Under the pieces are notes generated by a model. It was not told the origin of the DNA and made no database searches. It saw nothing but the letters and a program-made list of their open reading frames with translations. Source: Hormiphora californensis (taxonomy: Eukaryota > Animalia > Ctenophora). Taken from it: DNA of 64,000 bases. Shown piece after piece: positions 12,201 to 50,400 of the stretch (position 1 is the first letter of the stretch; each line of letters begins with the position of its first letter). Position numbers and translations under genes: made by a program. The stretch is taken from positions 930,001-994,000 of the forward strand of contig CM035355.1 in assembly GCA_020137815.1 (NCBI GenBank), in the 5' to 3' direction.

Positions 12201-13070
12201 TGGATACAATGACGACACAATGTGGATACAATGACGACACAATGTGGATACAATGACGACATAATGTGGATACAATGACGACACAATGTGGATACAATGA
12301 CGACACAATGTGTGGATACAATGACGACACTATGTGTGGATACAATGACGACACTATGTGTGGATACAATGACGACACAATGTGGATACAATGACGACAC
12401 AATGTGGATACAATGACGACATAATGTGGATACAATGACGACATAATGTGGATACAATGACGACACAATGTGGATACAATGACGACACAATGCGGATACA
12501 ATGACGACACTATGTGGATACAATGACGACACAATGTGGATACAATGACGACACAATGTGGATACAATGACGACACAATGTGTGGATACAATGACGACAC
12601 AATGTGGATACAATGACGACACAATGTGGATACAATGACGACACAATGTGGATACAATGACGACACAATGTGGATACAATGACGACACTATGTGTGGATA
12701 CAATGACGACACAATGTGGATACAATGACGACACAATGTGGATACAATGACGACATAATGTGGATACAATGACGACATAATGTGGATACAATGACGACAC
12801 AATGTGGATACAATGACGACACAATGCGGATACAATGACGACACTATGTGGATACAATGACGGCACAATGTGGATACAATGACGACACAATGTGGATACA
12901 ATGACGACACAATGTGGATACAATGACGACACAATGTGGATACAATGACGACACAATGTGGATACAATGACGACACAATGTGTGGATACAATGACGACAC
13001 AATGTGGATACAATGACGACACAATGTGGATACAATGACGACACAATGTGGATACAATGACGACACAATG
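9266..13070. repeat. ~3.8-kb satellite of 22-bp units (GATACAATGAC GACACAATGTG)
   Basis: About 170 units, each made of two related 11-mers. Variant units (+TG, cata, cta, gaat) recur in blocks. Confidence 0.97.
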
Positions 13071-25300: not shown

Positions 25301-25457
25301 TGCATTGTAAAAATCGATGAGATCTGGGTGGGAGAACTAAAGTAAGCTTAAAATAGCCCAAAATAGGTCACAACTTACAATTTATTTCTGCGATGTTCAC
25401 CTCACCCCATGATACAGAGCATAGCAATGAGAGAACAACAAAAAACTGTCCTGTCAT
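16386..25457 (-). CDS. Multi-exon receptor-like protein: signal peptide, plant-type LRRs, Cys-rich linker, multi-pass TM domain (non-rhodopsin, TRP/PKD2-C-like)
   Basis: Signal peptide MTGQFFVVLSLLCSVSWG; cap LIDFYNALDGDNW; LRRs LNLNGNKFSGNI and LDLSDNYISGSYP; Cys-rich CEEGSEGPTCEKCSDGY...CREC. TM exons read IKQLMSYLQ, FYDNSVNCYE, GLYESF...EPVLLLRKFIMILL, IIRQPY, CNIFEIV and LHIILVVVW. The final exon ends EEQF* at 16386. The exon chain is unresolved at ~21300-21700. Confidence 0.8.
16969..17149. mobile_element. Second copy of the ~180-bp MITE
   Basis: Reverse-complement similarity to 4274-4455. Confidence 0.7.
17481..19181. repeat. Complex intronic repeat: 2 x ~146 bp followed by 3 x ~475 bp tandem units
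   Basis: attcggggcctggcaagg... occurs twice. The unit aaccatag...gaagccccctgaagtag...(gtaatta)n...ttggtcgaggt then occurs three times. Probably a transposon-derived tandem array. Confidence 0.85.
20563..21030. repeat. 52-bp minisatellite (~9 units)
   Basis: Unit acaagaatccacacggcacatacaacccccacacaaccccctctactactaa, bracketed by the direct repeat gaagaagctacaagcaagaatcc. Confidence 0.92.
21914..22079. mobile_element. Tc1/mariner(pogo)-like MITE fragment
   Basis: TA-CAGTCGGACCCCGATTTAG start, with repeated inverted subterminal motifs ctaaatcgggg. The right end is incomplete. Confidence 0.6.
22528..22788. mobile_element. Fold-back MITE
   Basis: The ends gcaagggtcaccacacacc / ggtgtgtggtgacccttgc and the internal arms ctccccattctaaaagtaacaatctcac / gtgagattgttacttttagaatggggag are inverted repeats. 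Confidence 0.8.
23043..23990 (-). repeat. 35-bp minisatellite made of an exon end plus 5' splice site (~27 units)
   Basis: The minus-strand unit gcaagtgtagggagtgtctggattcaaag|gtagtt is the last codons (KCRECLDSK) of the preceding exon plus its GT donor. Confidence 0.92.
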
Positions 25458-26401: not shown

Positions 26402-29400
26402 ATGTCCTCTGTCATTTCCAACATTCTTTACACCCCGCTGACATTCTCACGACATATTTCACAGACAATGGTTAACAGCCTCTTCAAGGCGCTGTCCCTG
26501 ACAAACAATGATGACAGTACCGACACAACGACAGACATCACTACGACAGACAACACTACGACAGACAACACATCTGAAGATGAAGAAGAGAAAGATCCCC
26601 GGGATAAAATTGTGGAAAAACCGAAGGATTCAGAGCAGGAATTCAGGGTGTTTACACTGAAGAACGGTTTGAGGTGTTTGCTGGTGTCAGATGGTGATGG
26701 GGAGAGCAGTAAAAACTCCATGGTTCAGGCCCATAAAGACATTGATTCAACTGACACGGGAGCAGCCTGTCTGTCAGTGGGAGTGGGCAGTGTGCACAAT
26801 CCCCGACACGCACAAGGTGAGTTACCAGCTTCATGGGAGTATTGTGTCTACATTGTTTTGAGTACCTGTCTCTGTAAGTTAAACTTCACTGTTTGCATTG
26901 TTCCTGATTACCCTGTCTGTTATTGTCCTCCATGCCTGTATCTGTCTTAGCTTCCTCATTATCAGTAACGGTATCTTCACTTCCCGGCCGTATTAAACTG
27001 CAAACTCACCCCCCCCCCCCTCAGGATTGGCCCATTTCCTGGAACATATGATGTGTATGGGATGTAAAAAGTACCCCGGAGAAAACGAGTTTGATGAGTT
27101 TATCGACGAACACGGGGGTAGTTCAAATGCTGCTACTGACTTTGAAATTGTAAGTTTCACGTGATGTTTATTGTTCATGCCCAAATATGGTATTGAAAAC
27201 CATGTGATACCCATATATGGTATGAACTACGTGACAATTCTTCAGACTCAGTACATGTTTGACATATCAGTAGAGTATATCGAGGAGGGACTGGATCGAT
27301 TAGCTCATCAGTTTATACATCCCCTACTTCGAAAGAGTAGTGTAAATCGGGAGGTAAGTGCTGAACTAATTTATTGTTGTTCATGTATAATGAAATTTCT
27401 AAATGATTTAAATAATTAATAATTACTACATATTTGTCTCGCTCGACCCTGTTTCACTGCATCTCACAGAGTCTGAATATTAAAAAGGCTTTGAACAAAA
27501 CAATAAAACACCACAGGTAAACAATTAATCACCTCCCAGGTGAATGCAGTGGATAGCGAGTTTATGATGGGACTGCAGAAGGACAGTGAGAGGTTGGAAG
27601 CTATTAATGTCTCTCTCATCCAGTCTGACCATCCTTGTTGTATATTCGCTGCAGGAAACAAGAAATCCCTCCTAAAGGTATTAATTGATCAAATCGTTGA
27701 TTGTTATCTAATTATCTAATTAATAATTAATAATAATTGCTTGTGTTTTATACAGGACACAAAAAGAGCGGGTATTGACATTCTCTCAGAGCTGCGTAAG
27801 TTTTACGATCAGTACTACTCGTCCAACCTCATGACGCTGTGTGTCCAGAGCACCCTGTCCCTTGACGCGATGGAGAAGATGGTGGGGGTGTTTGAGAAGA
27901 TACCCAACAAGTCCATACCCCGGCCCACACTGGAGACACTTCCCAGACCAGTTAACAAGTGCAACTTCCTCAAGTATGATGGGGAGAGTTGTTATTCAAT
28001 AACATTGAAATGTGGATAATAGTAATAATTATGCACTGAACTGCTGTAGACATCACCCACTCACTTCATACACACACAACACCCACACACATGACCAAGC
28101 CTGTACGACAGGTTATTGATCACCGGCTGTATTACAGCACGAGAGAGCCGTCACTAGTATCGTGCAGTGATCCGAAGATCATGATAACAATTAATATGAC
28201 GTGATCAACTGCTATAGCCCAACTGTTCATTTTGAGAATTCTGATACAAAGATATTATTTGCCGTACTGATATATGAGGTAACTCAAACCCCCCAGTTTC
28301 ATCTCCTTGTTTAACATGGGAGTTACCAAGGGAATCCACTGGGTTCGATTAATCTAGGCACATACCCACAGTACTATTCGAATTGGCGTATCTTTATATC
28401 AGGAATCTCGGATAGCAACAATCCTTGTGTTTTATTGCTATCTGAACAGATTAGGCGTATAGACAGGGCTCTTATTATCAGCAGTGCTCACGTTTCAAGG
28501 ATAATAGTAATAATTATGCACTGAACTGCTGTAGACATCACCCACTCACTTCATACACACACAACACCCACACACATGACCAAGCCTGTACGACAGGTTA
28601 TTGATCACCGGCTGTATTACAGCACGAGAGAGCCGTCACTAGTATCGTGCAGTGATCCGAAGATCATGATAACAATTAATATGACGTGATCAACTGCTAT
28701 AGCCCAACTGTTCATTTTGAGAATTCTGATACAAAGATATTATTTGCCGTACTGATATATGAGCTAGACCCTGTTTCGAAGGGTTTGAACCAGTAAACAC
28801 AACCTCAGGTATTACCCAGTAAAGGACAAGACCAAGTTGTATGTGAGTTGGTTTGTAGAGCCCATGTTACCCCACTACAAATCTAAACCTGATACATTGG
28901 TTGAGTGGTGTCTAGGACACGAGGGTCCTGGATCACTGCTTAGTAAACTCAAGAAGGAACAACTCGCTACTTCCTTGGATGCAGGTTAGTGTCATGCCCA
29001 TATGTTAGTGAAATATACATGATATACATATGGTTAAGAAACTACAACGACACGTGACGACAGTGTGGTTCGGTACTTGTTGATTTATCCAGGTCACCTT
29101 GTTTTCCTTACACCAACAATCACCGCAATACTAACAACCAGTATTATGTTGTTATAGTCACATGATATATCCATATACATATGCGGCTTCTTATGCAGTC
29201 ACCCTTCTCCAGTGACTGGTGCTTGTTGTTACCATAATATTAGGTTGTCTCAGAAAATATTTCGTGACCCATTTTCTCCAATTAAGCCCGATTCCGATTT
29301 AAAACTTTTCTAGCCTTGAATCTATAAAACAAGCGCACCCTAACGCCTCATATTCCTATATATAGTCACCACCATGGAAATTCCGAATTGTACCGTACCC

Positions 29401-32400
29401 ATGAACTTTGGTAGCCAGTACCGGGAGTTCCCGGGTCTGAATGACCTACAACTGATGTGCAGTGGAGGTGAAGTAGTCCGCACCAGCTCTTTCCCGCTAG
29501 CCATAAACAGTCCAGTAATGTGCGATTTAGTTGGTACCCAGGGAATGAAAGAGCTAGACGTGGAGGAATTTTCGGAGCCCTCGGTGAATTGTTTCGTCTA
29601 TGCATGTTACTCGGGTTATTTAACTCTCCTCAAGAAGCAAAACTTTCGGGAGGTCAACAAAATGTGTGCAGTGTTTAAGGTCCAATGGATGATAGACAGC
29701 TGTCTCAAATTCTTTACTGGCCTCTGCTCCGAGCTTACCGAAGAATCCTTTGAAACAGCATGGTATCTGTTCGAGGAAGCGGCATACATCCTCAAGGAGA
29801 GGAACAGCAGAGAGCTGGAAAAGCTTTTAAAAAACAGATTGGAAGAATTGCCTACTCTCAGATTGGCACTGATAAATGAATTTCTCTCACGTGATCCTAA
29901 CGAACAGGAGTTCATGTACACCAAGCTTTGTTTATCCCTGGCTGGAAAGTCAACCCCTGTTCTTCATAGTTGGCTAATTACCCTGATAGAAAATAAGACC
30001 CCTCCCGTGGAACTTAGTGGAGTCGAAAAACAGTTCCTCAAATCCCAAACCCTGACGATTTGTTCCCAAGAGGATCCTGAAGTCTACAAAAAGTTGGTCA
30101 ATACTCTCCAATCTTTATTGGGCAACGAAGATCTTGGTGCATTATTTGCAACATTCCTTCAGGTTCAAATGATGCCAGTAGTACCCAGTCCCTCGAGTAG
30201 CTCCCAGTACAAACCTGACCAGATTGTGTATCCTATAGAAATACCAGCTCTTGGAGGGTGCACTTCCTTTCTGGATGCTGTGAAAGTACTTGATGGGGAA
30301 ACGAGAATTAATTCATGTTCCCAGTTTGTAATATCTCTATCCTACTGCTGTGACATGTTTGACGACACATCTTCACAGGACGTTGTTGATGCAATAACAG
30401 CAGCACTGGAGAAGCGACGTAACAACACTACACTCGGGCTATTTGGAGTCTCACTGTTAACCGAATTGGGGTACTTTAGAAACTTTACTGGAGTTAGCGG
30501 AGTTGTGGAGCAGTACATGAGAGAGAAGGAGGACAGTGCAGTTGGATTGTATGTGGATGCTCTATATGATGTCCCATTGAAGTTCCCACTGCAGCATTCC
30601 AGAACCGTGTTCCTTGACCTGCATGATGATGGACCAAGTTACTGTAATGAAAACCCAAAGGGGTCCAAGAAAAGATGCAAGTTGGCTGTGGAGTTTTCAT
30701 TGACTCTTTCAACTGATCAATCGTGGCCAATAATTACCACTAAATTAGTGACGGATCAAACAATTTTAGAATCTCGAACAGACTCTCATTTTCACCAAGA
30801 CCCTGAATTGCTCCAGTATCTTTGGATTGATGATTTTGGTGATCACGGTATCTTCTCCTTCACGGTGTGTAGTGATATAAACACTCCAACTACCACACTA
30901 CGAAGATTCTACGAGCACTGTAATGAACACAATATGGTGTACATTGATATCGGGTTACCTTGTGTAGAACTTGGCTAGCTGTGTTGTTACATCTTCCAAT
31001 GTACTGAGTGGCTACTAGATAAATGACAATGAGATATTTTCTCAAAATAAACTAATTGTGTGGTCAATATTATTGTATGATTCGATTTGGGTTGCGTCGT
31101 GTGAAGGATTGTTGATTCCCTTTATACTGTATGTTTATATTTAACCTAATTAATGATTATGATAATGTTTTGAATTAATTAAGTCTAACGGTGTCTACCT
31201 AGTCCCAGTTATAGTGAATGTTATGTATACCACCACAGTTTGGCCACAATAGGGCTCTAAACTAAGGTTGTGTTTTCCCATCATGGGGCTCTATAATGGT
31301 GTTATTTATCACGTGATACTCATATGTTGGTGTTGGTGGCCACGTAAAGCACAAATATTAACTGAATCAATAAGTTGACCGATCTAATCGGATGTCTTTG
31401 GCAAACATAATTATCATGAAATTTATTTAATAACACATCGATATAACACACGTGTTGGGCAAAAAAAATGTCCCCCCTAGACTAGCATAGTTCCAGATAT
31501 CGTAGAGCTCTAAAATTTTACACAGCTGTTCTATGGGACAAATAAATAGGTTCCACAAAATTTCAGACTTTTAGCTCAAAGTTCTTTTTTTTTTATAGGA
31601 ATGAACATTGTCATTCATTCCAAAAAACATGATTATTCGTTCCAGAAGTCAGGCAATTGTCTTTGGCTATCGATTTTCTTTCAAATGCGACCAAGAAAAG
31701 CCAAAACGGACAACCACAAGACACACAGTGGTCATGTTTCTGACAGTTAGTCAGGTTATGTGATCCCCACCGAATCGAGAATTGCTAATCAGGCTTAGTG
31801 GGGAAGAATCACGTATCACAATCGCTAATGAGAGATGTGTATTGAAAAAGCGACATGTGATTCGAGAGCACTTGGCTAAAGAGGCCACTTGTTAATGAGC
31901 TTCGGATCTCATGACCAATCGTCATCGTCATCCCTCATAAGCGGCTGTGTTACGTGATTCTCCACCACTAAGCCTGATTAGCGATTCTGAATAACTTACA
32001 CGATTCGGTGGGGATCACATGACCTGACTAACTGTCAGAAACATGACCACTGTGTGCCTTGTGGTTGTCCGTTTTGGCTTTTCTTGGTCGCATTTGAAAG
32101 AAAGAAAAATAGCCAAAAACAATTGCCGGGCCTTTTGGAAAGGGGAAAAATCTGTTTTTTGGAATGAATGACAATGTTTTCCCATCAAAAAAATTTAAAA
32201 ATTTTGGGGCCCAAAAAAAATCTTTAAATTTTGTTTGGGAAACCCATTTATTGGGCCCCTAGAAAAAGCTGTGTAAAATTTTAGAGCTCTTTCGATATTG
32301 GAACTTGCTGTCTAGGGGGGACATTTTTTTGCCCAAAAAACGGGACTAGTTTTTATTTTTTTTCAACAGTTCACACTATTGTCAGCCCGTATACCCCCGT

Positions 32401-35400
32401 TTTTGTTTCAAAAAGTACATCAGGGTCCCTAGCAAATTTATTTTTCACACTTCCAATTTCCCTGGGCCTTGGAAAACCCTCTAATTTTGGTTAAAAATCA
32501 TCAAAATTTCCCGGTAAGATGACCCGGATTGGTGTTTTCTCATAAGGGACCCGAATCAGCCCCTTCCCCCTGTCCCCTACTCCTAAAAAAAATACTGTAC
32601 CGGGGGCATTAGGGGTTTAGGGAATATCCAGGGATCCCTCATAGGTGCCTGCCAAAAAGGGAAAATTCCCTAAGATTTAAGGAAGAAAAAACAGAGATTG
32701 GGAAGAAAAAAGGCCCAAGAAAGAAGGGAACCCTTGTTTTAAAGGGAAAAGATAGGTAGAGGGCGTTGGGGTCAGGGGCACACATTGCCCGGGCTCAGTT
32801 TCAACCACTCAAACCCCAAAAAACTTTTTACCTCAAAACGCGACCCTTTTTGGAAATAGTTTGTCTTTGTTAAAAAGTGGGTGGTTTACTAAATTTCCTC
32901 GTTATAAAGTGACCTAACACCAAAAACCCCTAGACCAAGTTATACCACGTTCATCCCCTACTCGAAAAATTTACCAGTCAGGAAAAAAACTGTAAACCCT
33001 AATTAAAAAGGTTTGAAAAAGCTTTGGGGCACCCCATAGCTAAACTGAAACATTTCGTTTAAAACCCAAAAATTCAGCCCCTTTTCCCCAAAAATGTGGT
33101 TTTAAAACCCGGGTTTTAAAAAACCAGTAACCCCTTTTTCCCCGAGTTTTCCAGGAAAATGCCCCTCGACAGGGTGGTCTTGGCCCGAGTTTCCCCGATG
33201 AGTGGGTTTTTTTACCCTGCTGCCCAAAATGTTTTAAAAAATAGGTAAAGGGGGGGTTTAAAACAGCGTACGATGGCAAAATTTGAAACTGTACCCCCCG
33301 GGAAACCCCGGGGGGAATATTTCTCCGGGGGGGGACATCCTTTTCACTGGGGGCACTCCAACATTGTTCCAAACTGTCAACAATCTGGGGAAAACAAGCT
33401 GGTAGTTGGGTTTTGGACAATGCCAGGGGAGGGGAGCATGGGGGGGGGGAGATCATCCCCCTTCCCCACAAATTTTACATACCAAAACTCCAACAATAAA
33501 CCCCCTAAAAAAAAGCCCCCCCAAAATTTGCTGACCCCATCGCACTGATTGTTTTCTCCTCCCCCTACTGTTTTAAGATTTCCACCATACCCCGTGTTTT
33601 GGGGTAGCATAGGTGATCCCCAGGGTTTGAGGATTTTTCGCACGAAACTAACCCCCCCATAAGTGAAACCCTATAGAACAAATGCGGGTTTTTGCAGTAT
33701 GCAGTGGGGGGGCGCCCAGCTAGGTGCAGAGAAAACATAAGAAAAAAAATGTAGTGAAAAAAGCCAAAGAAAGTGATATCAGCCCCCCCGACATGGATTT
33801 TTCCCCGTCCCCTTGCTTTGTTACCAAAAACAACATCAAACCCGACCAACAACCAGTATCATGTTTTTAAATAGTCAATGATTCCCTAATCCCTTTAAAA
33901 TGGGCTCTTAGCAGTACCCCTTTTCCAGGATGGGGTTGGTTTTTACCATTTTTATTTGATTAGATTTGGTTGTCCCCGAAAAAAATTTTTGGGACCTTTT
34001 CCCAATTAAGCCCAATTCCGATTTAAAAACCCTTTTTAGGGCCCTTTAATCTATAAAAAAAAAGCGCACCCAACGCCTTTATTTTCCCCAAATTTTATAG
34101 TCAACCCCCATGGAAATTCCGAATTTTACCGTACCAATTAAAATTTGGTAGCTAGTACCCGGGGGTTTCCCCGGGGGCGGGAAAGACCCACAAACTGAGG
34201 GTGGAGGGGGAAGTGGGGAAATATTTCCCCAACCCGGTCTTTCCCCTAGGCCCCTTTAAAAAGTCGGTAATGTGCGATTTTGTCGGTACCCAGGGAATGA
34301 AAGAGTTTGACGTGGAGGAATTTTTTGGGGTCCCCGGGTGAATTGTTTGTCTATGCATGTTACTCGGGTTTAATTTTAAATTCCTTTAAGAAGCAAAAAA
34401 TTTTTGGGAGGGGCAACAAAAAGTGTGCAGTGTTTAAAGGCCAAAGGATGATAGCAGCTGCTCAAATTTTCACCGGCCTCTGCTCGGGCCTTTTCCGAAG
34501 AATCCTTTTAAAAAAGCTGGTAATTTTTTTCGGGAAAAGGGGGATCCCTCCCCCAAGGAGAGGAAAAAGCAGAGAGTGGAAAAGCTTTTTAAAAAAACCC
34601 GATTTTTAAAAATTTCCTCTTTTCAGGGGTGGTTTTTGATAAAAGAAATTTTTTCCACGTGATTTTTAAAAGAAAAAGGAGTTTAGTACACCCAAACTTT
34701 GTTATCCCTGGCTTTGGGAAAATTAACCCCCTTTTTTCTGTTGGCTTTTACCCCGATAGAAAAAAAAGACCCCTCCCCTGGAACCCTTTGTGGAGTCGAA
34801 AAAAAAAGTTCCCCAAATCCCAAAACCCCTGACGATTGTTCCCCAAAAGGATCGGAAAGTGTACCCAAAAAAATTTGGGTTTGTACCTCCAATCTTTTAT
34901 TGGGGAACGAAGACTTGGTTTCATTTTTTGGCCCAAAGTTCCTTTAGGTTCAAAAAGAGCCGTAGGACCAGGGCCCCGAAAATGCCCAGTACAAACCAAC
35001 CCGATTGTGATCCTAATAGAAATACCCGCCCCTTTTGGGGGGGGTTTCAATTCCTTTTTGGATGCTTGAAAAATACTTGATTGGGGGGGAAAAGAGAAAT
35101 TTTAATTTTGTTTCCAGTTTGTAAGTCCCTTTTTGGACTACTGGGTGTGAAATGTTTTGGGGAAACATCTCAGGATGTTTCTGACCCAAAAAAAGGAAAC
35201 ACGGGGGAACGACGTAAAAACACTACCGGGGCATTTGAGTCTCCCCTGTTTTCTAAACCCGGGGGGGTACTTGGGGAAAATTTTCCTGAAAATAAGGGGG
35301 AAATTGTGGAGAAGTACAGGGGAGAGAAGGAGGGCCCGGGAGTTATATTTTATGGGGATGCTTTTAATGATTTGGGCCCCTTGGAGTTCCCCTTTCCCGC

Positions 35401-38400
35401 ATTTCCCGAACCGTGTTCCTTGGGCCCGCATTGGGACCAACAAATTACTTAATGAAAAACCCAAAAAGGGGGCCAAAAAAAAAGATGGGAAGTTGGCGTT
35501 GGGGGTTTCAAGTCTCTTAAAAATGAAACAATCGTGGCCAATAATTCCAAATACATTGTGGGCGGATCAAAAAATTTTTGGGAATCTAAACAAAACCCCA
35601 AATTTTCCCCCAAGACCCTGAATTGGCCCCGTATTAATTTTGGGTTGTTGGTTTTAGTTTCCTTCGGTTTTCCCCTTTCCTTCACTGTGTTTATGATGGT
35701 CTCGGGATTTCCTCCCCTTCATGGGGTTTTGTGACATGAAAACCCCAACCCACCAAACTACGAAGATTTTAAGAGCACTGGAATAAAACACAATGAAAAT
35801 ATTTCCTTTTGGGTTTAGGTTAAATTTGTTTTAAATCTTTGGTAGCTGTGTTTTTAACCCTTTTAATGTACTTGGAGTGGCTACTAGATAAATGACAATG
35901 AGAAAATTTTTCCCCAAAATTTAAAAAAAATGTGTGGTCCCCAAAATTTTTTTCAGTTTGGGATTGTAGTTTCGATTTTTGTTGGTGTGAAGGGGTTTTT
36001 TGATTCCCTTAGTGTATTTAAAATTTTAAAACCCAATTAATGATTATGGGTTGTTTTGAATTAATTAAATTAACGGTGTCTACCTAAATCCCCCGTTAAG
36101 TGAATATATGATTTCCACAGTTTCGCCACAACAGGGGTCTAAAAATAAGGTTGTGTTTTCCCCTTATGGGGCCTATAAGGGGGGTTTTTTATCCCCGTGA
36201 AAATCTATATTGGGTGGCCACGTTTTAAAAACCCAAAAATTAAATGGGAAACAATTAAATTTAAACCCTCTAAGGGGTGTTTGACCCAAATAAATATCAA
36301 AAAAATTATTTAAAAACACATCGAATTTTTACATAAATTTATTTTTTCTATATCAAAAAGTTCACACAGTTTGTCAGCCCCGTATCACCCCCGTTTTTGT
36401 CATCAAGAGGACTATATATAAGAAAAATTTTTATTCTTCAATAAATTCCAATCCATGGTTGCCCTTTGGTAAAAAAGTCTATAGGGTTTAAACATCAAAT
36501 ATTTCCGGGGTGAAAAATGAATGGGTTGGTGTTACTCATCCGGACCTTTAATCAGCTCCCTTTCCCCCCGCTCCCAAACTCCCAAAGACATTTTGATAAC
36601 CCTGGTCTGTTTGGAATGCAATCATCCAGATCCCTTTGTTTGGGGCCCCGCCCAGAAGAACATCCACTTTAAAATGAAGGAAACAATGCAGAGGGGTGGA
36701 AAAGGAAAGGGTAAGATAAAAATGAAAAATGTGAAAGGGAAAAGATATTTAACGGAAGGGTTTGGGGCAGGGCACCCCCTTTTCAGTCCCCAAATTTCTA
36801 GACCACTTTAACCCGAACCCCCTTTTACCTAAAATGCGGGCCCTCTTAGGAAAAAAGTTTTTCTTTTTTAAAGGGGTTTGGGGTGGTTACTAATTCCCTG
36901 TTTTAAAGTGAAAAAAAAAACCAAACCCAATCAGCACCATAGTTATACCATGTATCACTCCCATACTCGAACATTTCACCAGTCAAGTAAAATACTGCTA
37001 CCGTAATTCCAAGGTAGAAGAGCTTGGTGCACCCTATAGCTAAACTGAAGCTATTCCGTTTAAACCAAAACTTCAGACCTTTCCCAAAGATGTGGTGTTT
37101 AAACCGGTAATACAACCAGCTAACCACTTTCTCCTGAGTTTTCTCAGCAGCCTGCCCGTCTGACAGGGTGGTCTTGCAGAGTTGCCTGATGAGTGGTTTG
37201 TACTCCCCTGCTGCAAAGTGTTTGAAAAGTAGGTAGGGTGTGTAATAAGCAGCTGCTACGATGGCAAAGTAGAACTGTACCCACTGGTACCACAGGTGGA
37301 ATATCTTCTCCGGGGGCAGGACATCCTTCTCACTGGGACACTCTAACCTTGTTCCATCTGTCAGCAATCTGGGTACACATGCTGGTAGTTGGTCTGGCAC
37401 AATGCCAGGGTAGGGGAGCATGGGGGTGGGGAGATCATACGCCTCTCTCACAGTATACATGCCAATACTCCAACAATAATCTTCTACAAACTGCTGCCCA
37501 AACTTGCTGACCCCATCGCACGTGATCGTCTCTCCTCCGTACTGTTTTTGAGATACCACCATACACACGTGTTTTGGATAGCATAGCTGATCCCCAGGTT
37601 AGTGGATTTGTCGCACGCAACTCACCGCACTAGAGTGCATACCCTATAGAATATAATGCAGTTGTTGCAGTGCAGTGGGGTGGTGCCCAGCAATGCTGTA
37701 GAGAAATATGTACCGAAAGGACCAGAGCTGAAACGCCGTAGAAAGTGATATCAGCACCCCGACATCGGATTTATCCTAGTCACCTTGCTTTGCTTACATC
37801 CACAATAACCGCAAACCTGTACCAACAACCAGTATCATGTTGTTATAGTCACATGATTCATAGTCCATACCCATATAGTTATGCGGCTCACCACCCTTTA
37901 CGAGTGAATGGTTTCGTGTCCCGTTTTCTCCAATTTAGCCCATCGATTTCGATTTAAAACTTTTCTAGCTTGTTCATTATATTAACCCTTGAATCTATAT
38001 AACGAGTGTCTATTTTTAGAAAATAATTGATTTTTTACGCGAACGAATTACGTGTTCATTTGATATTTTGGACATGTTCCTGAGTTAGTTATTGACAAGA
38101 TAAAACCGGTTAAAGGTCTCTAACCCATGTATTTCTCCTCAAAATCGGTACACGACATTATTTCTGGGACACGACATTATTTCTGGGACACAACATTATT
38201 TCTGGGACACGACATTATTTCTGGGACACGACATTCTTTCTGGGACACGACATTCTTTCTGGGACACGACATTTGTTAATCCATATACCTTAACACCTCA
38301 TTTTCCTATATAATATTATATAGTCACCACCATGGAAATTCCAAATTGTACCGTACCCATGAACTTTGGTAGCCAGTACCGGGAGTTCCCGGGTCTGAAT

Positions 38401-41400
38401 GACCTACAACTGATGTGCAGTGGAGGTGAAGTAGTCCGCACCAGCTCTTTCCCGCTAGCCATAAACAGTCCGGTAATGTGCAATTTGGTCGGTACCCAGG
38501 GCATGAAGGAGCTAGACTTGGAGGAATTTTCGGAGCCCTCGGTGAATTGTTTCGTCTATGCATGTTACTCGGGTTATTTAACTCTCCTCAAGAAGCAAAA
38601 CTTCCGGGAGGTCAACAAAATGTGTGCAGTGTTTAAGGTCCAATGGATGATAGACAGCTGTCTCAAATTCTTTACTGGCCTCTGCTCTGACCTTACCGAA
38701 GAATCCTTTGAAACAGCATGGTATTTGTTCGAGGAAGCGGCATACATCCTCAAGGACAGGAACAGCAGAGAGCTGGAAGAACCTTTAAAAAACAGATTGG
38801 AAGAATTGCCTACTCTCAGATTGGCACTGATAAATGAATTTCTCTCACGTGATCCTAACAAACAAGAGTTCATGTACACCAAGCTTTGTTTATCCCTGGC
38901 TGGAAAGTCAACCCCTGTTCTTCATAGTTGGCTAATTACCCTGATAGAAAATAAGACCCCTCCCGTGGAACTTAGTGGAGTCGAAAAACAGTTCCTCAAA
39001 TCCCAAACCCTGACGATTTGTTCCCAAGAGGATCCTGAAGTCTACAAAAAGTTGGTCATTACTCTCCAATCTTCATTGTGCAACGAAGATCTTGGTGCAT
39101 TATTTGCAACGTTCCTTCAGGTTCAAATGATGCCAGTAGTACCCAGTCCCTCGAGTAGCTCCCATTACAAACCTGACCAGATTATGAATCCTATAGAAAT
39201 ACCAGCTCTTGGAGGGTGCAATTCCTTTCTGGATGCTGTGAAAGTACTTGATGGGGAAACGAGAATTAATTCATGTTTCCAGTTTGTAATATCCTTGTAC
39301 TACTGCTGTGAAATGTTTGGCGACACATCTTCACAGGATGTTGCTGATGCAATAACAGCAGCACTGGATAAGCGCCGTAACAACACTACACGCGGGCTAT
39401 TTGGAGTCTCACTGTTAACCGAATTGGGGTATTTTGGAAACTTTACTGGAGTTAGCGGAGTTGTGGAGCAGTACATGAGAGAGAAGGAGGACAGTGTAGT
39501 TGAATGGTATTGGGATTATGTATATGATAGCCCATTGGAGTTCCCATTGCAGCATTCCGAAAACGTGTTTCTCGGCCTGCATTATGGACCAACAAGTTAC
39601 TGTAATGAAAACCCAAAAGGGTCCAAGAAAAGATGCAAGTTGGCTGTGGAGGTTTCAATGTCTCTTACAAATGATAAATCGTGGCCGATAATTACTACTA
39701 AATTAGTGACGGATCAAACAATTTTAGAATCTCAAACACACTCTCATTTTCACCAAGACCCTGAATTGCTCCAGTACATTATAATTGATGATTATGGTGG
39801 TCCCGGTATCTTACCCTTAATGGTGTGTAGTGACATGAACACTCCAACTACCACACTACGTAGATTCTACGAGCACTGTAATAAACACTATATGATGTTC
39901 ATTGTTATCGGGTTACCTCGTGTAAAACTTGGTTAGCTATGTTGTTACATCTTCCAATGTACTGAGTGGCTAAATGACAATGAGATATGCAGTAACTGAC
40001 ACAAAATAAACTAATTGTGTGGTCCGATATTATTAGATGTATGGTATTGTATGATTCGATTTGGGTTGCGTCATGTGAAGGATTGTTGGTTCCCTTAGTG
40101 TATGTTTATATTAAACCTAATTAATGTTTATAATAATGTTTTGAATTAATTAAGTCTAACGGTGTCTACCTAGTCCCAGTTATAGTGAATATATGTCTAC
40201 CACAGTTTCGCCACAACAGGGATCTAAACTAAGGTTGTGTTTTCCCATCATGGGGCTCTATAATGGTGTTATTTATCACGTGATATATATGTTGGTGTTG
40301 GTGGCCACGTAAAGCACAAATATTAACTGAATCAATAAGTTGACTGATCTAATCGGATGTCTTTGACAAACATAAATATCATAAAATTTATTTAATAACA
40401 CATCGATATACATAGTTTATTTTATCTATATCAACAGTTCACACTAGTTTGTCAGCCTGTATCACCCCCGTATTGTCATCAACAGTACTATCATGATCCA
40501 AAGCAAATTGATTCTTCACTACTTCCACATCCATGGTTGCCTTGGTAACAAGTCTATAGGTTAACTCATCAAATATCCTGGTGAAGATGACTGGATTGGT
40601 GTTACTCATCAGCACCTGAATCAGCTCTCTTCCCCCTGCTCCAATACTCCTAAAGACATACTGATACCGGGGTCTATTAGGCATCATGCAATCATCCAGC
40701 ATCCTCTCGTAGGTGCCTCGCCAGAAGAACATCTCACTAAGATGAAGGAAGCAACTGCAGAGATTGGAGAAGAAGGCTAAGATAAGAATGAACCATGTGA
40801 TAAGGAAGAGATATTGATAGAGGACGTTAGGGGTCAGGACACACATTGCAGTCTCAGTTTCTAGACCACTCAATCCGAACCGCTGAACCTCACACGCGAC
40901 CATCTTAGGAAATAGTTTATCTTTGTTAAGAGTGGTGTGGTTTACTAAATTCTCCTCGTATAAAGTGAACCTGACACCAAACCAATCAGCACCATAGTTA
41001 TACCATGTCTCACTCCCATACTCGAACATTTCACCAGTCAGGTAAAATACTGCTACCGTAATACCAAGGTAGAAGAGCTTGGTGCACCCTATAGCTAAAC
41101 TGAAGCTATTTCGTTTAAACCAAAACTTCAGACCTTTCCCAAAGATGTGGTGTTTAAACCGGTAATACAACCAGCTAACCACTTTCTCCTGAGTCTTCTC
41201 AGCAGCCTGCCCGTCTGACAGGGTGGTCTTGCAGAGTTGCCTGATGAGTGGTTTGTACTCCCCTGCTGCAAAGTGTTTGAAAAGTAGGTAGGGTGTGTAA
41301 TAAGCAGCTGCTACGATGGCAAAGTAGAACTGTACCCACTGGTACCACAGGTGGAATATCTTCTCCGGGGGCAGGACATCCTTCTCACTGAGACACTCCA

Positions 41401-44400
41401 ACCTTGTTCCATCTGTCAGCAATCTGGGTACACATGCTGGTAGTTGGTCTGGCACAATGCCAGGGTAGGGAAGCATGGGGGTGGGGAGATCATACGCCTC
41501 TCTCACAGTATACATGCCAATACTCCAACAATAATCCTCCACAAACTGCTGCCCAAACTTGCTGACCCCATCGCACGTGATCGTCTCTCCTCCGTACTGT
41601 TTTAGAGATACCATCATACACACGTGTTTTGGATAGTATAGCTGATCCCCAGGTTAGAGGATTTGTCGCATGCAACTCACCACACTAGAGTGCATACACT
41701 ATAGAACATAATGCGGTTATTAGGGTGCCCAGCTATGCTGTAGAGAAATCTTTGCCGAAAGGACCGTAGATGAAACGCCACAGAAAGTAATATCAGCACC
41801 CCGACATCGGATTTATCCAGGTCACCTTGCTTTGCTTACACCCACAATAACCGCAAACCTGTTCTAACAACCAGTACTATGTTGTTATAGTCACATGATT
41901 CATAATCCATACATATGCGGCTTCTTATGCAGTCACCCTTCTCCAGTGACTGGTGCTTGTTTTTACCATAATATTAGGTTGCCTCAGAAAAAATTTCGTG
42001 ACCCATTTTCTCCAATTGATTCCGATTTAAAACTTTTCTAGCCTTGAATCTATATAACGAGCGCACCCTAACGCCTCATTTTTCTATTATATAGTCACCA
42101 CCATGGAAATTCCGAATTGTACCGTACCCATGAACTTTGGTAGCCAGTACCGGGAGTTCCCGGGTCTGAATGACCTACAACTGATGTGCAGTGGAGGTGA
42201 AGTAGTCCGCACCAGCTCTTTCCCGCTAGCCATAAACAGTCCGGTAATGTGCGATTTGGTCGGTACCCAGGGAATGAAAGAGCTAGACTTGGAGGAATTT
42301 TCGGAGCCCTCGGTGAATTGTTTCGTCTATGCATGTTACTCGGGTCATTTAACTCTCCTCAAGAAGCAAAACTTTCGGGAGGTCAACAAAATGTGTGCAG
42401 TGTTTAAGGTCCAATGGATGATAGACAGCTGTCTCAAATTCTTTACTGGCCTCTGCTCTGACCTTACCGAAGAATCCTTTGAAACAGCGTGGTATTTGTT
42501 CGAGGAAGCGGCATACATCCTCAAGGAGAGGAACAGCAGAGAGCTGGAAGAACCTTTAAAAAACAGATTGGAAGAATTGCCTACTCTCAGATTGGCTCTG
42601 ATAAATGAATTTCTCTCACGTGATCCTAACAAACAAGAGTTCATGTACACCAAGCTTTGTTTATCCCTGGCTGGAAAGTCAACCCCTGTTCTTCATAGTT
42701 GGCTTGTTACCCTGATAGAAATTAAGACCCCTCCCGTGGAACTTAGTGGAGTCGAAAAACAGTTCCTCAAATCCCAAACCCTGACGATTTGTTCCCAAGA
42801 GGATCCTGAAGTGTACAAAAAGTTGGTCAGTACTCTACAATCTTCATTGGGCAACGAAGATCTTGGTGCATTATTTGCAACGTTCCTTCAGGTTCAAATG
42901 ATGCCAGTAGTACCCAGTCCCTCGAGTAGCTCCCAGTACAAACCTGACCAGATTGTGTATCCTATAGAAATACCAGCTCTTGGAGAGTGCACTTCCTTTC
43001 TGGATGCTGTGAAAATACTAGACGGGGAAACGAGAATTAATTCATGTTTCCAGTTTGTAATGTCCTTGTTGGACTACTGCTGTGACATGTTTGGCGACAC
43101 ATTTTCACAGGATGTTGCTGATGCAATAACAGCAGCACTGGAGAAGCGACGTAACAACACTACACGTGGGCTATTTGGAGTCTCACTGTTTACTAAACCG
43201 CGGTACTTGGGAAACTTTCCTGAAGTAAGGGGAGTTGTGGAGCAGTACATGAGAGAGAAGGAGGACAGTGCAGTTATTAATATATTGTATGGGGATGCTG
43301 TATTTTACAATTGGAATGTTGTATATGATGGCGGCCCATTTAAATTCCCATTCCAGCATTCCAGCAACATGTTCCTCGACCTGCATTGTGGAACAAGTTA
43401 CTGTAATGAAAACCCAAAGGGGTCCAAGAAAAGATGCAAGTTGGCTGTGGAGTTTTCAATGTCTCTTACAAATGATCAATCGTGGCCAATAATTACCACT
43501 AAATTAGTGACGGATCAAACAATTTTAGAATCTCAAACAGACTCTCATTTTCACCAAGACCCAGAATTGCTCCAGTACATTTGGATTGTTGGTAATGGTG
43601 CTGGTCCCGGTTTCTTCCCCTTCATGGCCATGGTGTGTAGTGACATGAAAACTCCAAATACCGAACTACGAAGATTCTACGAGCACTGTAATGAACACAA
43701 TGAGATGTTCATTGATATCATGTTACCTCGTGTAGAACTTGGTTAGCTGTGTTGTTACCTTCCAATGTACTGAGTGGCTACTAGATAAATGACAATGAGA
43801 TATGCAGTAATTGGCACAAAATAAACTAATTGTGTGGTCCAATATTATTAGATGTATGGTATTGCACAACAAATAGAAACACGTTGGTTTACAAACAAAT
43901 GTTTCGATCTTGCGATCTCATCAGTGTACACTGATGAGATCGCAAGATCGAAACATTTGTTTGTAAACCAACGTGTTTCTATTTGTTGTACTCTGCTCTC
44001 GGTTCCACGCCGATAGAGCTCTCTTGTGGCCTACTGAAACAACCATATTGATGTATGGTATAATTGTATGATTCGATTTGTGTTGCGTCGTGTGAAGGAT
44101 TGTTGATTCCCTTACTGTATGTTTATATTGAACCTAGTTAATGTTTATAATATTGTTTTGAATTAATTAAGTCTAACGGTGTCTACCTAATCCCAGTTAT
44201 AGTGAATGTTATGTATACCACAGTTTCGCCACAATAGGGCTCTAAACTAAGGTAGTGTTTTCTCATCATGGGGCTCTATAATGGTGTTATTTATCACGTG
44301 ATACTCATATCTCTATTATAATTTGGAGATGTCGCGTGATGGTCGTTCGTTCAGCGGTATCTAAGCGACAGACTGCTCCTTCATAAAACACTCTATAGGC

Positions 44401-47400
44401 CCAAAGCTGTAAAGCTGTTGCTCACACTTTTGGAACTTCCAGTGGAAGTTTGCTGATATTTTCGAATGAATTTTAATATGCCAGTCCCCATAGTTACCAA
44501 TTCAGTTGCCATGGCAACCGTGTTATTGATGTTGAAAGTGGCGAAAGGAACCACCCGGCGAAGCCGGGTGGGTTATCAAAAAGCTCTTACTTGAAGCGCA
44601 CCCAATGGGTGCGCTAGTATCTCTATTATAATTTGGAGATGAACGACGTCGAAGTGATGGCCGTTCGTTAGGCGGTATCTAAGCGACAGACTGCTCCTTC
44701 ATTAAGAATTTCAATGGCGTCCTGCAGTGGTGCAGTGACCAAAATTACGTAACTATGGCGGAAGTTGAGCCGCGCGCACACAGTGGCTGCTAACAGCGAC
44801 TGCTTTAACTTCTCCTTCCGCTGCGCGCGTTCCTGGAATGATAACGTCCTGTCATGACCACTTCATGTTGCTATGGCACTGATTTAAATTGTTTTGGGTC
44901 CTCTTGATGTGTGCTCACTGCTCCTGCTATCCGATCACATTTCATCTCATCAGAAACCAGCCCTGTCAGTGTCACATATCTCACAGTCATCAGCTCAGTA
45001 CACTGCACAGTGTCACATGTTTAAATTACCACTCCCATTATTATGGGATTGTCGAATAGAACTCTAAATCAGATGTCAAACCCAAAGCGTTACGTGTAAC
45101 ACCCGGCCCTTTTTTGGGAGCAGTTGTTTTTACTTTGCTGGCAGTTTGAGATCATTTCGGAACATAATTTAGCAATTCAGTCTCCATAGTTACCGATTTA
45201 GTTGCCATGGCAACCATTGAATTGGTGACATATGTGGGAGAAAGAGGGCCACCCGGCGGAGCCGGGTGAGTTATCAAAACGCCCTTACTTGGGGCGCACC
45301 CAATGGGTGCGCTAGTATATATATATGTTGGTGTTGGTGGCCACGTAAAGCACAAATATTAACTGAATCAATAAGTTGACCGATCTAATCGGATGTCTTT
45401 GACAAACATAAATATCATAAAATTTATTTAATAACACATCGATATACATAGTTTATTTTATCTATCTCAACAGTTCACACTAGTTTGTCAGCCTGTATCA
45501 CACCCGTATTGTCATCAACAGTACTATCATGATCCATAGCAAATTGATTCTTCACTACTTCCACATCCATGGTTGCCTTGGTAACAAGTCTATAGGTTAA
45601 CTCATCAAATATCCTGGTGAAGATGACTGGATTAGTGTTACTCATCAGCACCTGAATCAGCTCCCTTCCCCCTGCTCCAATACTCCTAAAGACATACTGA
45701 TACCGGGGTCTATTAGGCATCATGCAATCATCCAGCATCCTCTCATAGGTGCCTCGCCAGAAGAACATCTCACTAAGATGAAGGAAGCAACTGCAGAGAT
45801 TGGAGAAGAAGGCTAAGATAAGAATGAACCATGTGATAAGGAAGAGATATTGATAGAGGACGTTAGGGGTCAGGACACACATTGCAGTCTCAGTTTCTAG
45901 ACCACTCAACCCGAACCGCTGTACCTCACACGCGACCATTTTAGGAAATAGTTTATCTTTGTTAAGAGTGGTGTGGTTTACTAAATTCTCCTCGTATAAA
46001 GTGAACCTAACACCAAACCAATCAGCCCCATAGTTATACCATGTCTCACTCCCATACTCGAACATTTCACCTGTCAGGTAAAATACTGCTACCGTAATAC
46101 CTAGATAGAAGAGCTTGGTGCACCCTATAGCTAAACTGAAGCTATTTCGTTTAAACCAAAACTTCAGACCTTTCCCAAAGATGTGGTGTTTAAACCGGTA
46201 ATACAACCAACTAACCACTTTCTCCTGAGTTTTCTCAGCAGCCTGCCCGTCTGACAGGGTGGTCTTGCAGAGTTGCCTGATGAGTGGTTTGTACTCCCCT
46301 GCTGCAAAGTGTTTGAAAAGTAGGTAGGGTGTGTAGTAAGCAGCTGCTACGATGGCAAAGTAGAACTGTACCCACTGGTACCACAGGTGGAATATCTTCT
46401 CCGGGGGCAGGACATCCTTCTCACTGGGACACTCCAACCTTGTTCCATCTGTCAGCAATCTGGGTACACAAGCTGGTAGTTGGTCTGGCACAATGCCAGG
46501 GTAGGGGAGCATGGGGGTGGGGAGATCATACGCCTCTCTCACAGTATACATGCCAATACTCCAACAATAATCCTCTACAAACTGCTGCCCAAACTTGCTG
46601 ACCCCATCGCACGTGATCGTCTCTCCTCCGTACTGTTTTAGAGATACCACCATACACATGGTCAGAATGATGATGAACACGTAGCATCTATTGACCTGAT
46701 CCCAGGCATCGTCAACTGTAACGTCTTTGAAGGGCGAGTACTGACGAAGGGAGTGGACTATCCAGAATGGGTGGATTGTCATATTCAGCTAGAAATACGG
46801 CAGGATTTTATAATATAGCAGCTAGTGGACTATCCAGAAGGGGTGGATTGTCATATTCAGCTAGAAATACGGCAGGATTTTATGATATAGCAGCTAGTGG
46901 ACTATCCAGAATGGGTGGATTGTCATTATCAGCTAGAAATACGTCAATATTTTATAATATAGCAGCTAGTGGACTATCCAGAATGGGTGGATTGTCATTA
47001 TCAGCTAGAAATACGGCAGGATTTTATAATATAGCAGCTAGAAATTCAGTCAGTGGTACAGTTTCTGATGTAGTGTCTGGAGCAAAACAATGAAACTGTC
47101 AGTTTTTGATAAACAAGACCAACAGACACAATTCAAAAGTCTCCCAGCAAGGCGGGTTAAACAACTGAGTAAAGTCTGTCTTTGAGATTGCCACTGAAGC
47201 GATAAAGGGAGTGTGTAAGCTTGGTGTGGTGCATATATAGTAGACATCTCAGACAAACCTAGATAAAACCCTCCATTTCTATTTATAACTGGCTGTAATA
47301 GTCGTTGGAAAATTTCAAATTACATAGTTAGTCCGGTGGATCGGTTGAAAAGTAGTGGATTAGCATCTAACCAACTAGCTGAACCTCACAAAATGTACCA

Positions 47401-50400
47401 ACTTTTACTTATGATCAAGAGTCAAAACCCTATTACACAATTCCCTCTACACAGGTACTGCACTAGGTGGATTTGATGATTGTACCAACTACACTCGGTT
47501 TACTGTTGAAATAGTCCTGACCGATGCTGGATTTGAGAAGTATAGAGACGTGTTGGTTTTACTGTTCCAGTACATAGCTATGATGAGGGATAACCTACCG
47601 TGTGAGAGGTACTGCAATAACTTTCCGGGATTTTGTGACTTTTCATTTGATCTACCGAACACTGTGAAATAACTTGGTAATGAAATTACCCCTCCGCAAA
47701 AGCTCACGGAAGCAATATAATAACAGGGGTGACTTCGTAACCAAGAAATAACCCCGGTGTAAGTTGTCCTACACTGACTGTACACCGCGCAACCGAGGCC
47801 CAGTGCGAAGAGGAGGGTCTCATATGAGACAAGGTGTAAGCCACATAACTATGTTTGATTCCCTGTTTAGGCTCTACAAGGAGTGTAAGAAAATGTATCA
47901 GATAGATTTTGACTTCATGGAGGAGGAGGAACCTTATGACAACGTAGAGAATCTCTCAGAAAACATGCTGGTATGTGTAGCATGTGTTATCCTGTATGTG
48001 TAGCATGTGTTATCCTGTATGTGTAGCATGTGTTATCCTGTATGTGTAGCATGTGTTATCCTGTATGAGTGTTATATCACGTGTGTGTTACCTTGTGTGT
48101 GTGTCACGTGTGTTACTGATGATCAGGAGATATGAGTGTTTTTTTAGACCTCCCCGTGCTAACATATGAGTGGTTATGTTGCATCAGTAATGTGTTACTA
48201 TTGTACAAGTTGCAGATCTCTCTATATCAGGAGATTGTCTAACCCCCTCCCCCCATATCCCAGCTGTCTACCCCCTCCCCCCATATCCCAGCTGTCTACC
48301 CCCCCCCCATCTCCCAGTTGTCTACCCCCTCCCCCCATATCCCAGTTGTCTAACCCTCTCCCCTATCTCCCAGTTGTCTAACCCCCTCCCCCCATATCCC
48401 AGTTGTCTAACCCCCTCCCCCCCCCCATCTCCCAGCTGTCTACCCCCTCCCCCCCATCTCCCAGCTGTCTACCCCCTCCCCCCATATCCCAGCTGTCTAA
48501 CCTCCCCCCCCCAGTTGTCTAACCCCCTCCCCCCCTATTATATCCAGTTGTCTAACCCCCTCCCCCATCTCCCAGCTGTACCCAGCAGAACACTACATCA
48601 GTGGTCCTGAGTTGTTCTACGAGCACCAACCTGATTTAGTAACCTCCCTACTGAAAGAGATGAATCCTCATACCATGCTACTAACGCTACAGAGCAAGAC
48701 TTACCAAAGTATGTGAAATGTAGTAGTTAATTAGTTAATCAGTTAACCAGTTAATTAGTTAATTAGTTAGTTAATTAATTAGGAAATTAGTCTTCAAGGG
48801 TTCTTCAGCTAGACTTCTCTACAAATATCGTTAGTCAATTCATTATTGTATTTCTCTATTACTTCCACCCCCTTTAGAAGAGTGCAAGAGTCAGGAACAA
48901 TGGTACAGGGGCAACTACAAAAAAGATAAGCTAGAGGAGCAGTTCCTGGAGACACTAGCCAGCCAGAAGGGAGGGAGTTTCAACCTACCTGAACCAAATC
49001 CATACATACCCGAGGTATGAGCCACTTCTGAACTCATCAGACGGAGCTGGGGGCTTAGAACTCACTGTTTACTCACATGTTTCCCTCCCCTAAGTTACAC
49101 TTTTCCAATTCAGGATTTTGAGATAAAAGAACTTGATATCGACCAGACGGCCCAGGCTCCGGTTTTGATAGCAGATGAGAAAGCCCACAAATTGTGGTAC
49201 TATGTTGATGATGTTTTCGAGAAACCCGAGTGTCTAATGTACTGGCAGGTGTACTGGTGAGTTAACATCGGTTACCACTGGTTACAACTCGTTACCATAG
49301 TTACCAGTGAATAATAGTGATGTCTTGTATTGTGGCTTTGTAGCGACTATCGTGACTACCCCTCAACACTCTATAATTTTCCGCCCAAAGTTTAGTAACC
49401 CTTGTATAGACACTTGACCTAGTAGCCAAAAAAATGCAAACTTTGAGATAGGTAACGATAAGTTGAAAAGTATATCAAAATACCAATAAATAATGTTTAA
49501 AACATTAAAATGCTTAAAAAAGACCCAACGACAGTCTGAAAACCAAATTCTTAAAATTAATATTGCTCATATTAAAATTCATCTTCTTCTAAAATGATAT
49601 CATGAACATTGAAAGAACCCTGCTGCCTACAAACAATAACATGCTTCATCATGATGGCTGAATCATTGGTCTCTCACGCAACAAAATCAAATTCTGCCTT
49701 CTCCGTGCGAGTTCAGCTGCATTAGCCCTCTTCTCCATCTGCTTTTCACTGACAGGTATTCTTAAACCGTCCCTAGAGCCCTGAATGTCGTGCTATTTGG
49801 CGTCACGTTGGAGGTCTGACTATCATTTGACTTGAACATTGGGGAACTATTTAGAAGGTTTCCTAGAGATATCCTACTGGGCCTGCCCCTCCCACTGGAA
49901 TGGTGTTATAGTTGAACTAAACATGTTGCCCAGAGAGACCCGTCCTGGCCTCCTGGGGGCAGTAGGATTAGACGGTCTGGCACCTTCTGATAGCTTCCTC
50001 CCCGCCACTAGAACAGGTCTTGGACCCAGCTGGGGCACTGCAGGTGAGGCTGGTTCAGGCTGAACGTTGTTGGACACCTACTCTGGAGTCTTGTACCGTA
50101 GATCTGGTTGGGGGAGGTGAACCAGGGGCTGAAGGATCCTCAGGCGCCTTATAAGGAGCGAGCCTTCTCATAGATGATTCTAATAAGTGTCTGTATGAGT
50201 TTAGTAAACCAGTTGATAATAGGTATCGTCGTGTAGCAGAGGGTTTACCATCGAGTTGATGGGGAGAACTACAAAGCTGAAAATCAAATAGGCATCTTTA
50301 GCATCAACAATCTCAGTGATAATTCAACCCGCACACAACTATAAAGGGTATCCAGCAGCAGAAATCAGTTGCAATTAAGGATGGACAGTTTAGTTTGGAG

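Follow-up and report, generated by a model that had tools for sequence, protein, structure and literature searches.

Why would an animal keep several neighbouring copies of one gene whose proteins agree almost fully in their first half and differ strongly in a few patches near the end? The question is raised by a tandem array at 29.0-46.8 kb of a 64,000-nucleotide stretch of Hormiphora californensis DNA (contig CM035355.1, positions 930,001 to 994,000; hereafter the window, meaning this whole stretch, with positions counted from its first letter). The window is animal DNA, and the named relatives of its innexin are innexins of the ctenophore Bolinopsis microptera. The array consists, in order, of BTB gene copy A (+), innexin 1 (-), BTB B (+), innexin 2 (-), BTB C (+), innexin 3 (-), BTB D (+), repeats and a full innexin (-). 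Our analysis shows purifying selection on amino acids (aa) 1-283 of the BTB proteins and a nonsynonymous excess on strands 1, 5, 6 and 8 of a predicted C-terminal beta-sandwich, with synonymous divergence flat; diversifying selection on these tail strands is highly probable. The BTB copies and their parts are listed below.

29374-30978, plus strand: BTB gene copy A, a single exon with an open reading frame of 534 aa (Pfam BTB E 8e-4); predicted domain order BTB, 3-box/BACK-like helices, linker, helical subdomain, TRAF/Siah-like beta-sandwich
29374-30189, plus strand: copy A, BTB and 3-box/BACK-like region (aa 1-272), under purifying selection (omega, the nonsynonymous to synonymous ratio, about 0.23)
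30223-30540, plus strand: copy A, helical subdomain (aa 284-389, from DSSP), further variable zones lie around aa 316-331 and 355-376
30541-30966, plus strand: copy A, beta-sandwich (aa 390-531), predicted to be divergent TRAF/MATH/Siah-like, with a candidate metal site
30541-30639, plus strand: copy A, patch 1 (strand 1, loop, strand 2 and the loop after strand 2)
30820-30864, plus strand: copy A, patch 2 (strand 5-6 hairpin)
30931-30954, plus strand: copy A, patch 3 (strand 8)
34110-35845, plus strand: BTB copy B, unreadable in the unpolished assembly
38332-39936, plus strand: BTB gene copy C, 534 aa (Pfam BTB 20.9 bits, cut-off 20.5)
About 39499-39597, 39778-39822 and 39889-39912, plus strand: copy C, patches
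42103-43746, plus strand: BTB gene copy D, 547 aa (Pfam BTB 22.3 bits)
About 43273-43398, 43579-43632 and 43699-43722, plus strand: copy D, patches

Copy B is excluded from all counts, and the comparisons concern A, C and D, the three usable DNA sequences, each with an intact single-exon frame, a strong Kozak-like start context and AATAAA downstream. The original prediction, made from the letters of the window, held that the first 280 or so residues differ at about ten positions and that hypervariable patches are confined to the C-terminal domain. The former is a fair description, as 14 of 280 columns vary over the three copies and 8-11 of 274 residues differ pairwise. The confinement is not strict, since 25 of 110 columns vary in aa 281-390 (the zone at 355-376 separating mostly D from A and C), although the variation does concentrate in the tail, with 65 of 158 columns in 391-548. 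The patch and framework sequences quoted at the time are all found in place in A, C and D; of the tail framework, the two quoted stretches do not vary at all, and the remainder has a nonsynonymous divergence (dN) of 0.04-0.06, three to four times that of the front half. Changes in the patches fall mostly at codon positions 1 and 2, as had been noted (15/17/6, 16/17/8 and 14/12/10 at positions 1/2/3), the counts for the first 280 codons being 6/3/14, 6/4/13 and 4/2/11. The indels among the three copies, said to be in frame, are multiples of three in all six cases. Of 40 indel rows from contigs of other samples, 12 are listed, and most of these either add up to multiples of three or compensate one another; for one single-base deletion in one X9 contig frame compensation is not visible. 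The variable residues are aromatic-rich as claimed: of the 65 variable sandwich columns 17 contain an aromatic, compared with 9 of the 93 invariant ones (Fisher p 0.008). Alignment of patch 1 is difficult, with a 27-nucleotide insertion in D that resembles a diverged internal duplication. A second sample under the same species label (runs X5 and X6) contains about 40% of copy A's words, compared with 63-70% in the first, and shows other patch letters, pointing to high between-individual variation or to other paralogs.

Pairwise dN/dS is 0.21-0.26 over aa 1-280, 0.59-0.84 over 281-390 and 1.24-1.67 from 391 to the end, and reaches 2.6-3.3 in the patches as first drawn, where a ratio of one or less had been named beforehand as refuting. 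Synonymous divergence (dS) is nearly flat, at 0.05-0.07 in the front, 0.09-0.14 in the patches and 0.07-0.09 gene-wide, and the non-coding flanks differ by 4.0-6.7% between copies. Gene conversion of the 5' part as the sole cause, with the equal dS rise in the 3' part that was anticipated for it, is rejected: dS goes only from 0.09 to 0.14 while dN goes from 0.023 to 0.20. Nonsynonymous changes cluster (5000 permutations, p 0.0002) and synonymous ones do not (p 0.31). Patch 2 shows pairwise 0-0.5 synonymous versus 8.5-10.5 nonsynonymous differences and patch 3 none versus 4-6; the region of the copy A helical subdomain has 26.3 nonsynonymous and 11.7 synonymous changes.

Counted by strand, with bounds slightly adjusted from DSSP and strand sets picked after the patches were known, strands 1, 5, 6 and 8 (33 codons) carry 36 nonsynonymous changes and 1 synonymous change, strands 5, 6 and 8 alone 19.5 and 0.5, and strands 2, 3 and 4 with a short extra strand (33 codons) 10 and 4. 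A partition likelihood test gives the variable strands an omega of 3.3-5.4; without strand 1 it is 3.8-4.2 and exceeds 1 at p 9e-6 to 6e-5, or p 0.0016 with an own rate and double mutations allowed. For the exact DSSP strands 5, 6 and 8, p is 0.0002-0.004 (0.004 with a free local rate and double-nucleotide changes), and for the other strands 0.4. Sites were also chosen independently, from the 21 more distant members of a 26-sequence alignment, with the window copies and two close relatives, P0001 and P0006, left out. These distant relatives vary more on strands 1, 5, 6 and 8 (0.79 vs 0.49, p 2.5e-6), and at their top-quartile sites A, C and D show 42 nonsynonymous changes versus 17 expected from the gene-wide proportion of synonymous differences (pS), or 33 versus 15 without aa 389-401. 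P0001 and P0006 repeat the front-conserved, strand-variable pattern; between A and P0001, 16 of 274 front residues differ versus 16 of 31 on strands 1, 5, 6 and 8.

The BTB domain at aa 21-114 is divergent, scoring 20-22 bits where the cut-off is 20.5, and is followed in the predicted model by 3-box/BACK helices. In the fold search with the whole model, BTB proteins take 8 of the top 10 rows, namely SPOP (3), KBTBD2, KLHL11, KLHL22, NPR1 and vaccinia A55; the front half is predicted to have a BTB-3-box/BACK fold. The C-terminal domain, which had not been recognised by eye, now best matches TRAF, MATH and Siah folds in the model: of 104 rows for the tail, the best 8 are Siah1, TRAF6, SPOP, USP7, TRAF3, meprin, TRAF1 and full-length SPOP, and a TRAF-like fold of the sandwich is probable. 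Searched within the larger model, the helical subdomain gave no clear fold match. Foldseek returned nothing at E 0.001 in PDB with either model, or in BFVD; ESM Atlas had no usable match for copy A aa 285-534 or for the sandwich of the member P0002; the Pfam MATH profile matched none of 26 members at E 0.1, and the tail profile no MATH or TRAF chain in PDB at E 10. A probable fold is hereby assigned to a domain without a Pfam, PDB-sequence or ESM Atlas match.

In the TRAF topology, strands 1, 8, 5 and 6 form one sheet and strands 2, 3, 4 and 7 the other, by which the variable strands 1, 5, 6 and 8 would share one face. Variable residues that were scattered or buried would have spoken against the original prediction; they lie instead on predicted strands and loops that likely share one sheet. 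On strands 5, 6 and 8 the changes fall largely at every other position (12.5 vs 4), the pattern that an exposed face packed over a core should show. Conservation is seen on strands 3 and 4 and, lying with them, at H417 (18/22), C424 (21/21), C435 (22/22), H472 (22/24) and H474 (23/24), these five residues making a candidate metal site. TRAFs bind receptors through strands 3, 4, 6 and 7, with strand 1 in the trimer, according to the available passages of PMC4858697. By alignment ranges, patch 1 maps near the Siah degron-contact residues T156 and M180 given in part of 10.1101/693937, so that a Siah-like edge site is plausible. In the BTB domain, K59-E60 is invariant in all 14 members covering the position, with M, I or L at 58; the motif abuts strand 4, where the loop looks short and the predicted local distance difference test score (pLDDT) is below 50. 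BTB adaptors bind Cul3 with a hydrophobic-x-Glu motif. A hydrophobic residue of the alpha3-beta4 loop inserts into Cul3 in such adaptors, and the binding of BTB-3-box/BACK adaptors to Cul3 is described as well, in the passages available from PMC3597819.

We lean towards the view that these are tandem, ctenophore-restricted BTB adaptors, each copy picking a different changing target for ubiquitination, possibly a parasite or virus protein. The conserved BTB-3-box/BACK front half would recruit the Cul3 ubiquitin ligase and the tail sandwich would bind the target, which would then be ubiquitinated and thereby marked for destruction; changing targets would select for diversification of one face of the tail, and duplication would multiply target specificities. 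On the predicted model, the role as a Cul3 adaptor is rather likely, and foreign targets come close to an even chance. Only tentatively would we see here a candidate ctenophore intracellular recognition repertoire, independently built from BTB-BACK adaptors with a remodelled, metal-binding TRAF/Siah-like tail, which uses the face opposite the canonical TRAF groove to bind foreign proteins and whose repertoires are reshuffled between individuals by unequal crossing-over.

Several results limit the case for diversifying selection at a binding surface of the kind first proposed. The pattern had been likened to that of complementarity-determining regions; the patches are mostly strands with alternating positions and not loops of that kind. 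In codon models custom-written for a three-sequence tree, blind site models over 533 ungapped codons gave 23.2 (M1a/M2a), 23.2 (M7/M8) and 23.3 (M8a/M8), with p about 1e-5 to 1e-6 and about 3% of sites at omega near 16; a strict mask, which drops strand 1 and codons within four of a gap and leaves 485, gave 4.2, 4.3 and 4.4 (p 0.12, 0.12 and 0.037). The M7 versus M8 check proposed at the outset is therefore significant unmasked and not so masked, and the blind test leans on hard-to-align codons. The distant relatives' top-quartile sites, set against their own pS, give a ratio of only 1.9 (1.4 without aa 389-401). It might then be supposed that no positive selection took place, exposed strands simply tolerating change and the patches being mosaics from older paralogs or mutation hot spots, which would suit the strict masked test, the family-wide variability of strands 1, 5, 6 and 8, like that of a free surface, the common multi-base codon changes, the internal duplication in patch 1 and the many family members that could donate tracts. 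We consider this improbable: relaxation caps omega at 1, an older tract or hot spot would also raise dS, the synonymous changes are unclustered, and the strand 5, 6 and 8 counts, with omega above 1 even when the local rate is left free and double mutations are allowed (p 0.002-0.004), go the other way. If selection is real, the partner may nonetheless be endogenous, the proteins being a Cul3-independent BTB scaffold, or adaptors against selfish elements or in self-recognition, with a variable sheet that sets paralog- or allele-specific assembly. Such a role is favoured by the part of TRAF strand 1 in the trimer interface (PMC4858697, as above), by the weak matches to the transcription factor BACH1 (E 0.2), the only sequence-level PDB matches of the BTB profile, and by the fact that no result names a target; it is rather unlikely, as the front half matches BTB and 3-box/BACK proteins, several solved in complex with Cul3, and a birth-and-death family whose changes are rich in aromatics and whose in-frame indels are frequent would fit an outside arms race.

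Could the array itself be an artefact, alleles or noisy reads of one gene joined end to end? The part at 32.5-36.7 kb (copy B and innexin 1) is plainly unpolished and full of homopolymer runs, so that gene calls there are unreliable; no short-read contig covers 32506-35510 at 90% likeness in any of 4 runs, and copy B differs from A, C and D by 28-29% of its DNA, with many indels of 1-2 nucleotides and a homopolymer excess. The neutral divergence of the copies (4-9%) is near the allelic level, given a heterozygosity of 3.2% in Hormiphora (available part of PMC8527503), and no single contig spans the array. Even so, an artefact is very improbable. A contig over 37381-37615 crosses the junction of the truncated innexin (37567), carrying 3 differences, and one over 41641-41850 crosses the linker-to-flank junction at 41810 with 0 (runs X1, X3), both from one sample that is possibly the assembly's source, and contig record 15 of run X3, over 43248-43418, matches D patch 1 with 0 differences. 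Errors would not leave three open frames, in-frame indels only and a nonsynonymous bias, and the selection signal would stand even between alleles. Shared pieces have about 4x the contig depth of unique ones (243 vs 46-64 in X1, 1232 vs 194-327 in X3), which is only a hint, contig depth not being copy number.

To how wide a family do the diversified adaptors belong? A full HMMER scan with the tail over 1.84 billion representatives found 15 proteins, 34-79% identical, and the relatives found are only ctenophore-type or unnamed proteins, none functionally named. Eleven of 12 BTB homologs carry EukProt 'sb' ids, a style which we take to be that of the Pleurobrachia bachei gene set. A 17-member tree unites A, C, D, P0001 and P0006 in a single clade (100/100), with several older subfamilies around it, and these sequences fit a lineage-restricted, expanding family. 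A search of 7985 candidates of 1001-2855 aa revealed no longer homolog, a result of little weight; a metagenome contig scan gave 30 pattern matches, 0 confirmed, and tblastn against phages no match. RNA run X14 held only 4 partial contigs, from more distant family members, and no RNA run of the organism labelled A contained the BTB gene's words, neither being evidence of absent expression. No description of the family surfaced among the matches listed from the ctenophore literature, which take in few subscription papers and no supplements.

The other genes of the array and its host gene are as follows.

28985-47454, plus strand: intron of about 18.5 kb in an M16 peptidase (nardilysin/insulysin-like) host gene, containing the whole array
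32363-33590, minus strand: innexin copy 1, in garbled assembly, 76% self-match to the full innexin
36370-37567, minus strand: innexin copy 2, 5'-truncated, with a garbled 3' part
40439-41620, minus strand: innexin copy 3, lacking about 44 N-terminal codons and otherwise open (Pfam innexin E 7e-40), in a duplicated unit
45475-46782, minus strand: full-length innexin gene at the end of the array (Pfam E 8e-44)

Upstream exons of the host gene match Pfam M16 and M16_C, and the intron is consistent in its GT/AG ends and in phase; Pfam gives no match for the downstream exon by itself, and we infer the intron junction. Nested genes are common in ctenophores, as stated in part of PMC8527503. Unequal crossing-over of a segment holding a BTB gene and an innexin is the probable origin of the units, which are probably recent, their neutral divergence being close to allelic levels, so that some of the BTB diversity may have been balanced variation between alleles before it came to stand in tandem. 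Innexin 3 and the full innexin differ by 18 synonymous and 2 nonsynonymous changes (pS 0.067), which suggests that units were assembled recently from functional alleles and that the BTB diversity is perhaps partly old allelic polymorphism. The 5'-truncated innexins at 40439-41620 and 36370-37567 look constrained and have an in-frame AG just upstream, then an internal Met; either they come recently from functional alleles or a short form without most of the first transmembrane segment is used. A linker of about 190 bp lies between truncated innexin and BTB upstream region at 41620-41810 and 37570-37760; neither the upstream region of A nor the full innexin has it. The available text of a published innexin study (PMC9949713) does not mention a BTB-innexin array.

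Repeats are also seen in the array: a MITE-like (miniature inverted-repeat transposable element) inverted-repeat element of about 880 bp at 31455-32336, high-copy in the contigs of all 4 runs; a perfect 124-bp palindrome (43866-43989) and internally repeated high-copy insertions (44308-45324) downstream of copy D; and a 72-bp tandem repeat (46752-47041) overlapping the start of the full innexin gene. Elsewhere in the window are long minisatellite arrays at 9267-13070, 17752-19182, 20560-21029 and 23043-23991, the first with stop-free repetitive minus-strand frames of up to 1295 codons. Other long frames encode a protein kinase (5502-6830, minus), an anoctamin (7308-9257, plus), a leucine-rich-repeat exon (24629-25336, minus) and a protein with two low-density lipoprotein (LDL) receptor A repeats (50868-52952, minus).

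Little is known of how ctenophores, the likely sister group of all other animals, recognise intracellular parasites. The BTB copies, if read correctly, would be a candidate immune receptor family in an arms race in the earliest-branching animal lineage, and A, C and D make a testable candidate, being near-isogenic proteins whose differences lie almost entirely at the proposed binding surface. The general adaptor pattern is already known, which limits the surprise: nematode F-box and MATH-BTB families combine a conserved ligase-binding part with a selected substrate part (passages of PMC8120010 and PMC4063957), and the tandem grass MATH-BTB expansion shows the same duplication-plus-selection logic (part of PMC4091423).

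How, then, does this family compare with known systems? The likeness to selected nematode MATH-BTB and F-box adaptors, drawn in the original prediction, is supported and closer than expected, since the tail best matches TRAF/MATH/Siah folds. Like the nematode bath and F-box genes and the expanded-clade MATH-BTB genes of grasses, the present genes are tandemly expanded, with a conserved part that would bind the ligase and a selected putative substrate domain of predicted TRAF/MATH type; as in the expanded clade, positive selection in the substrate domain goes with purifying selection in BTB, more weakly in the masked blind test. In comparison with BTB-BACK-Kelch/KBTBD Cul3 adaptors (KLHL11, KBTBD2, vaccinia A55), the Kelch propeller is lacking and the BTB is divergent, and unlike Siah/Sina and TRAF E3 ligases, the proteins have BTB and helices in front, without N-terminal RING and zinc fingers or a coiled coil. 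Compared with MATH-BTB proteins (SPOP, nematode bath, plant BPM), the order is reversed, BTB (aa 21-114) coming first and the sandwich (aa 390-531) last, the two being separated by a BACK-like region and by an additional helical subdomain of 105 aa; there is no Pfam MATH match, a candidate His/Cys metal site is present, and the variable strands are apparently 1, 5, 6 and 8, not the canonical groove of 3, 4, 6 and 7. By domain order and sequence this is not a MATH-BTB family, but it likely works like one, and a positively selected ligase-adaptor family would, if true, mean that the nematode and grass strategy evolved anew, with the domains ordered differently and the binding face probably another one.

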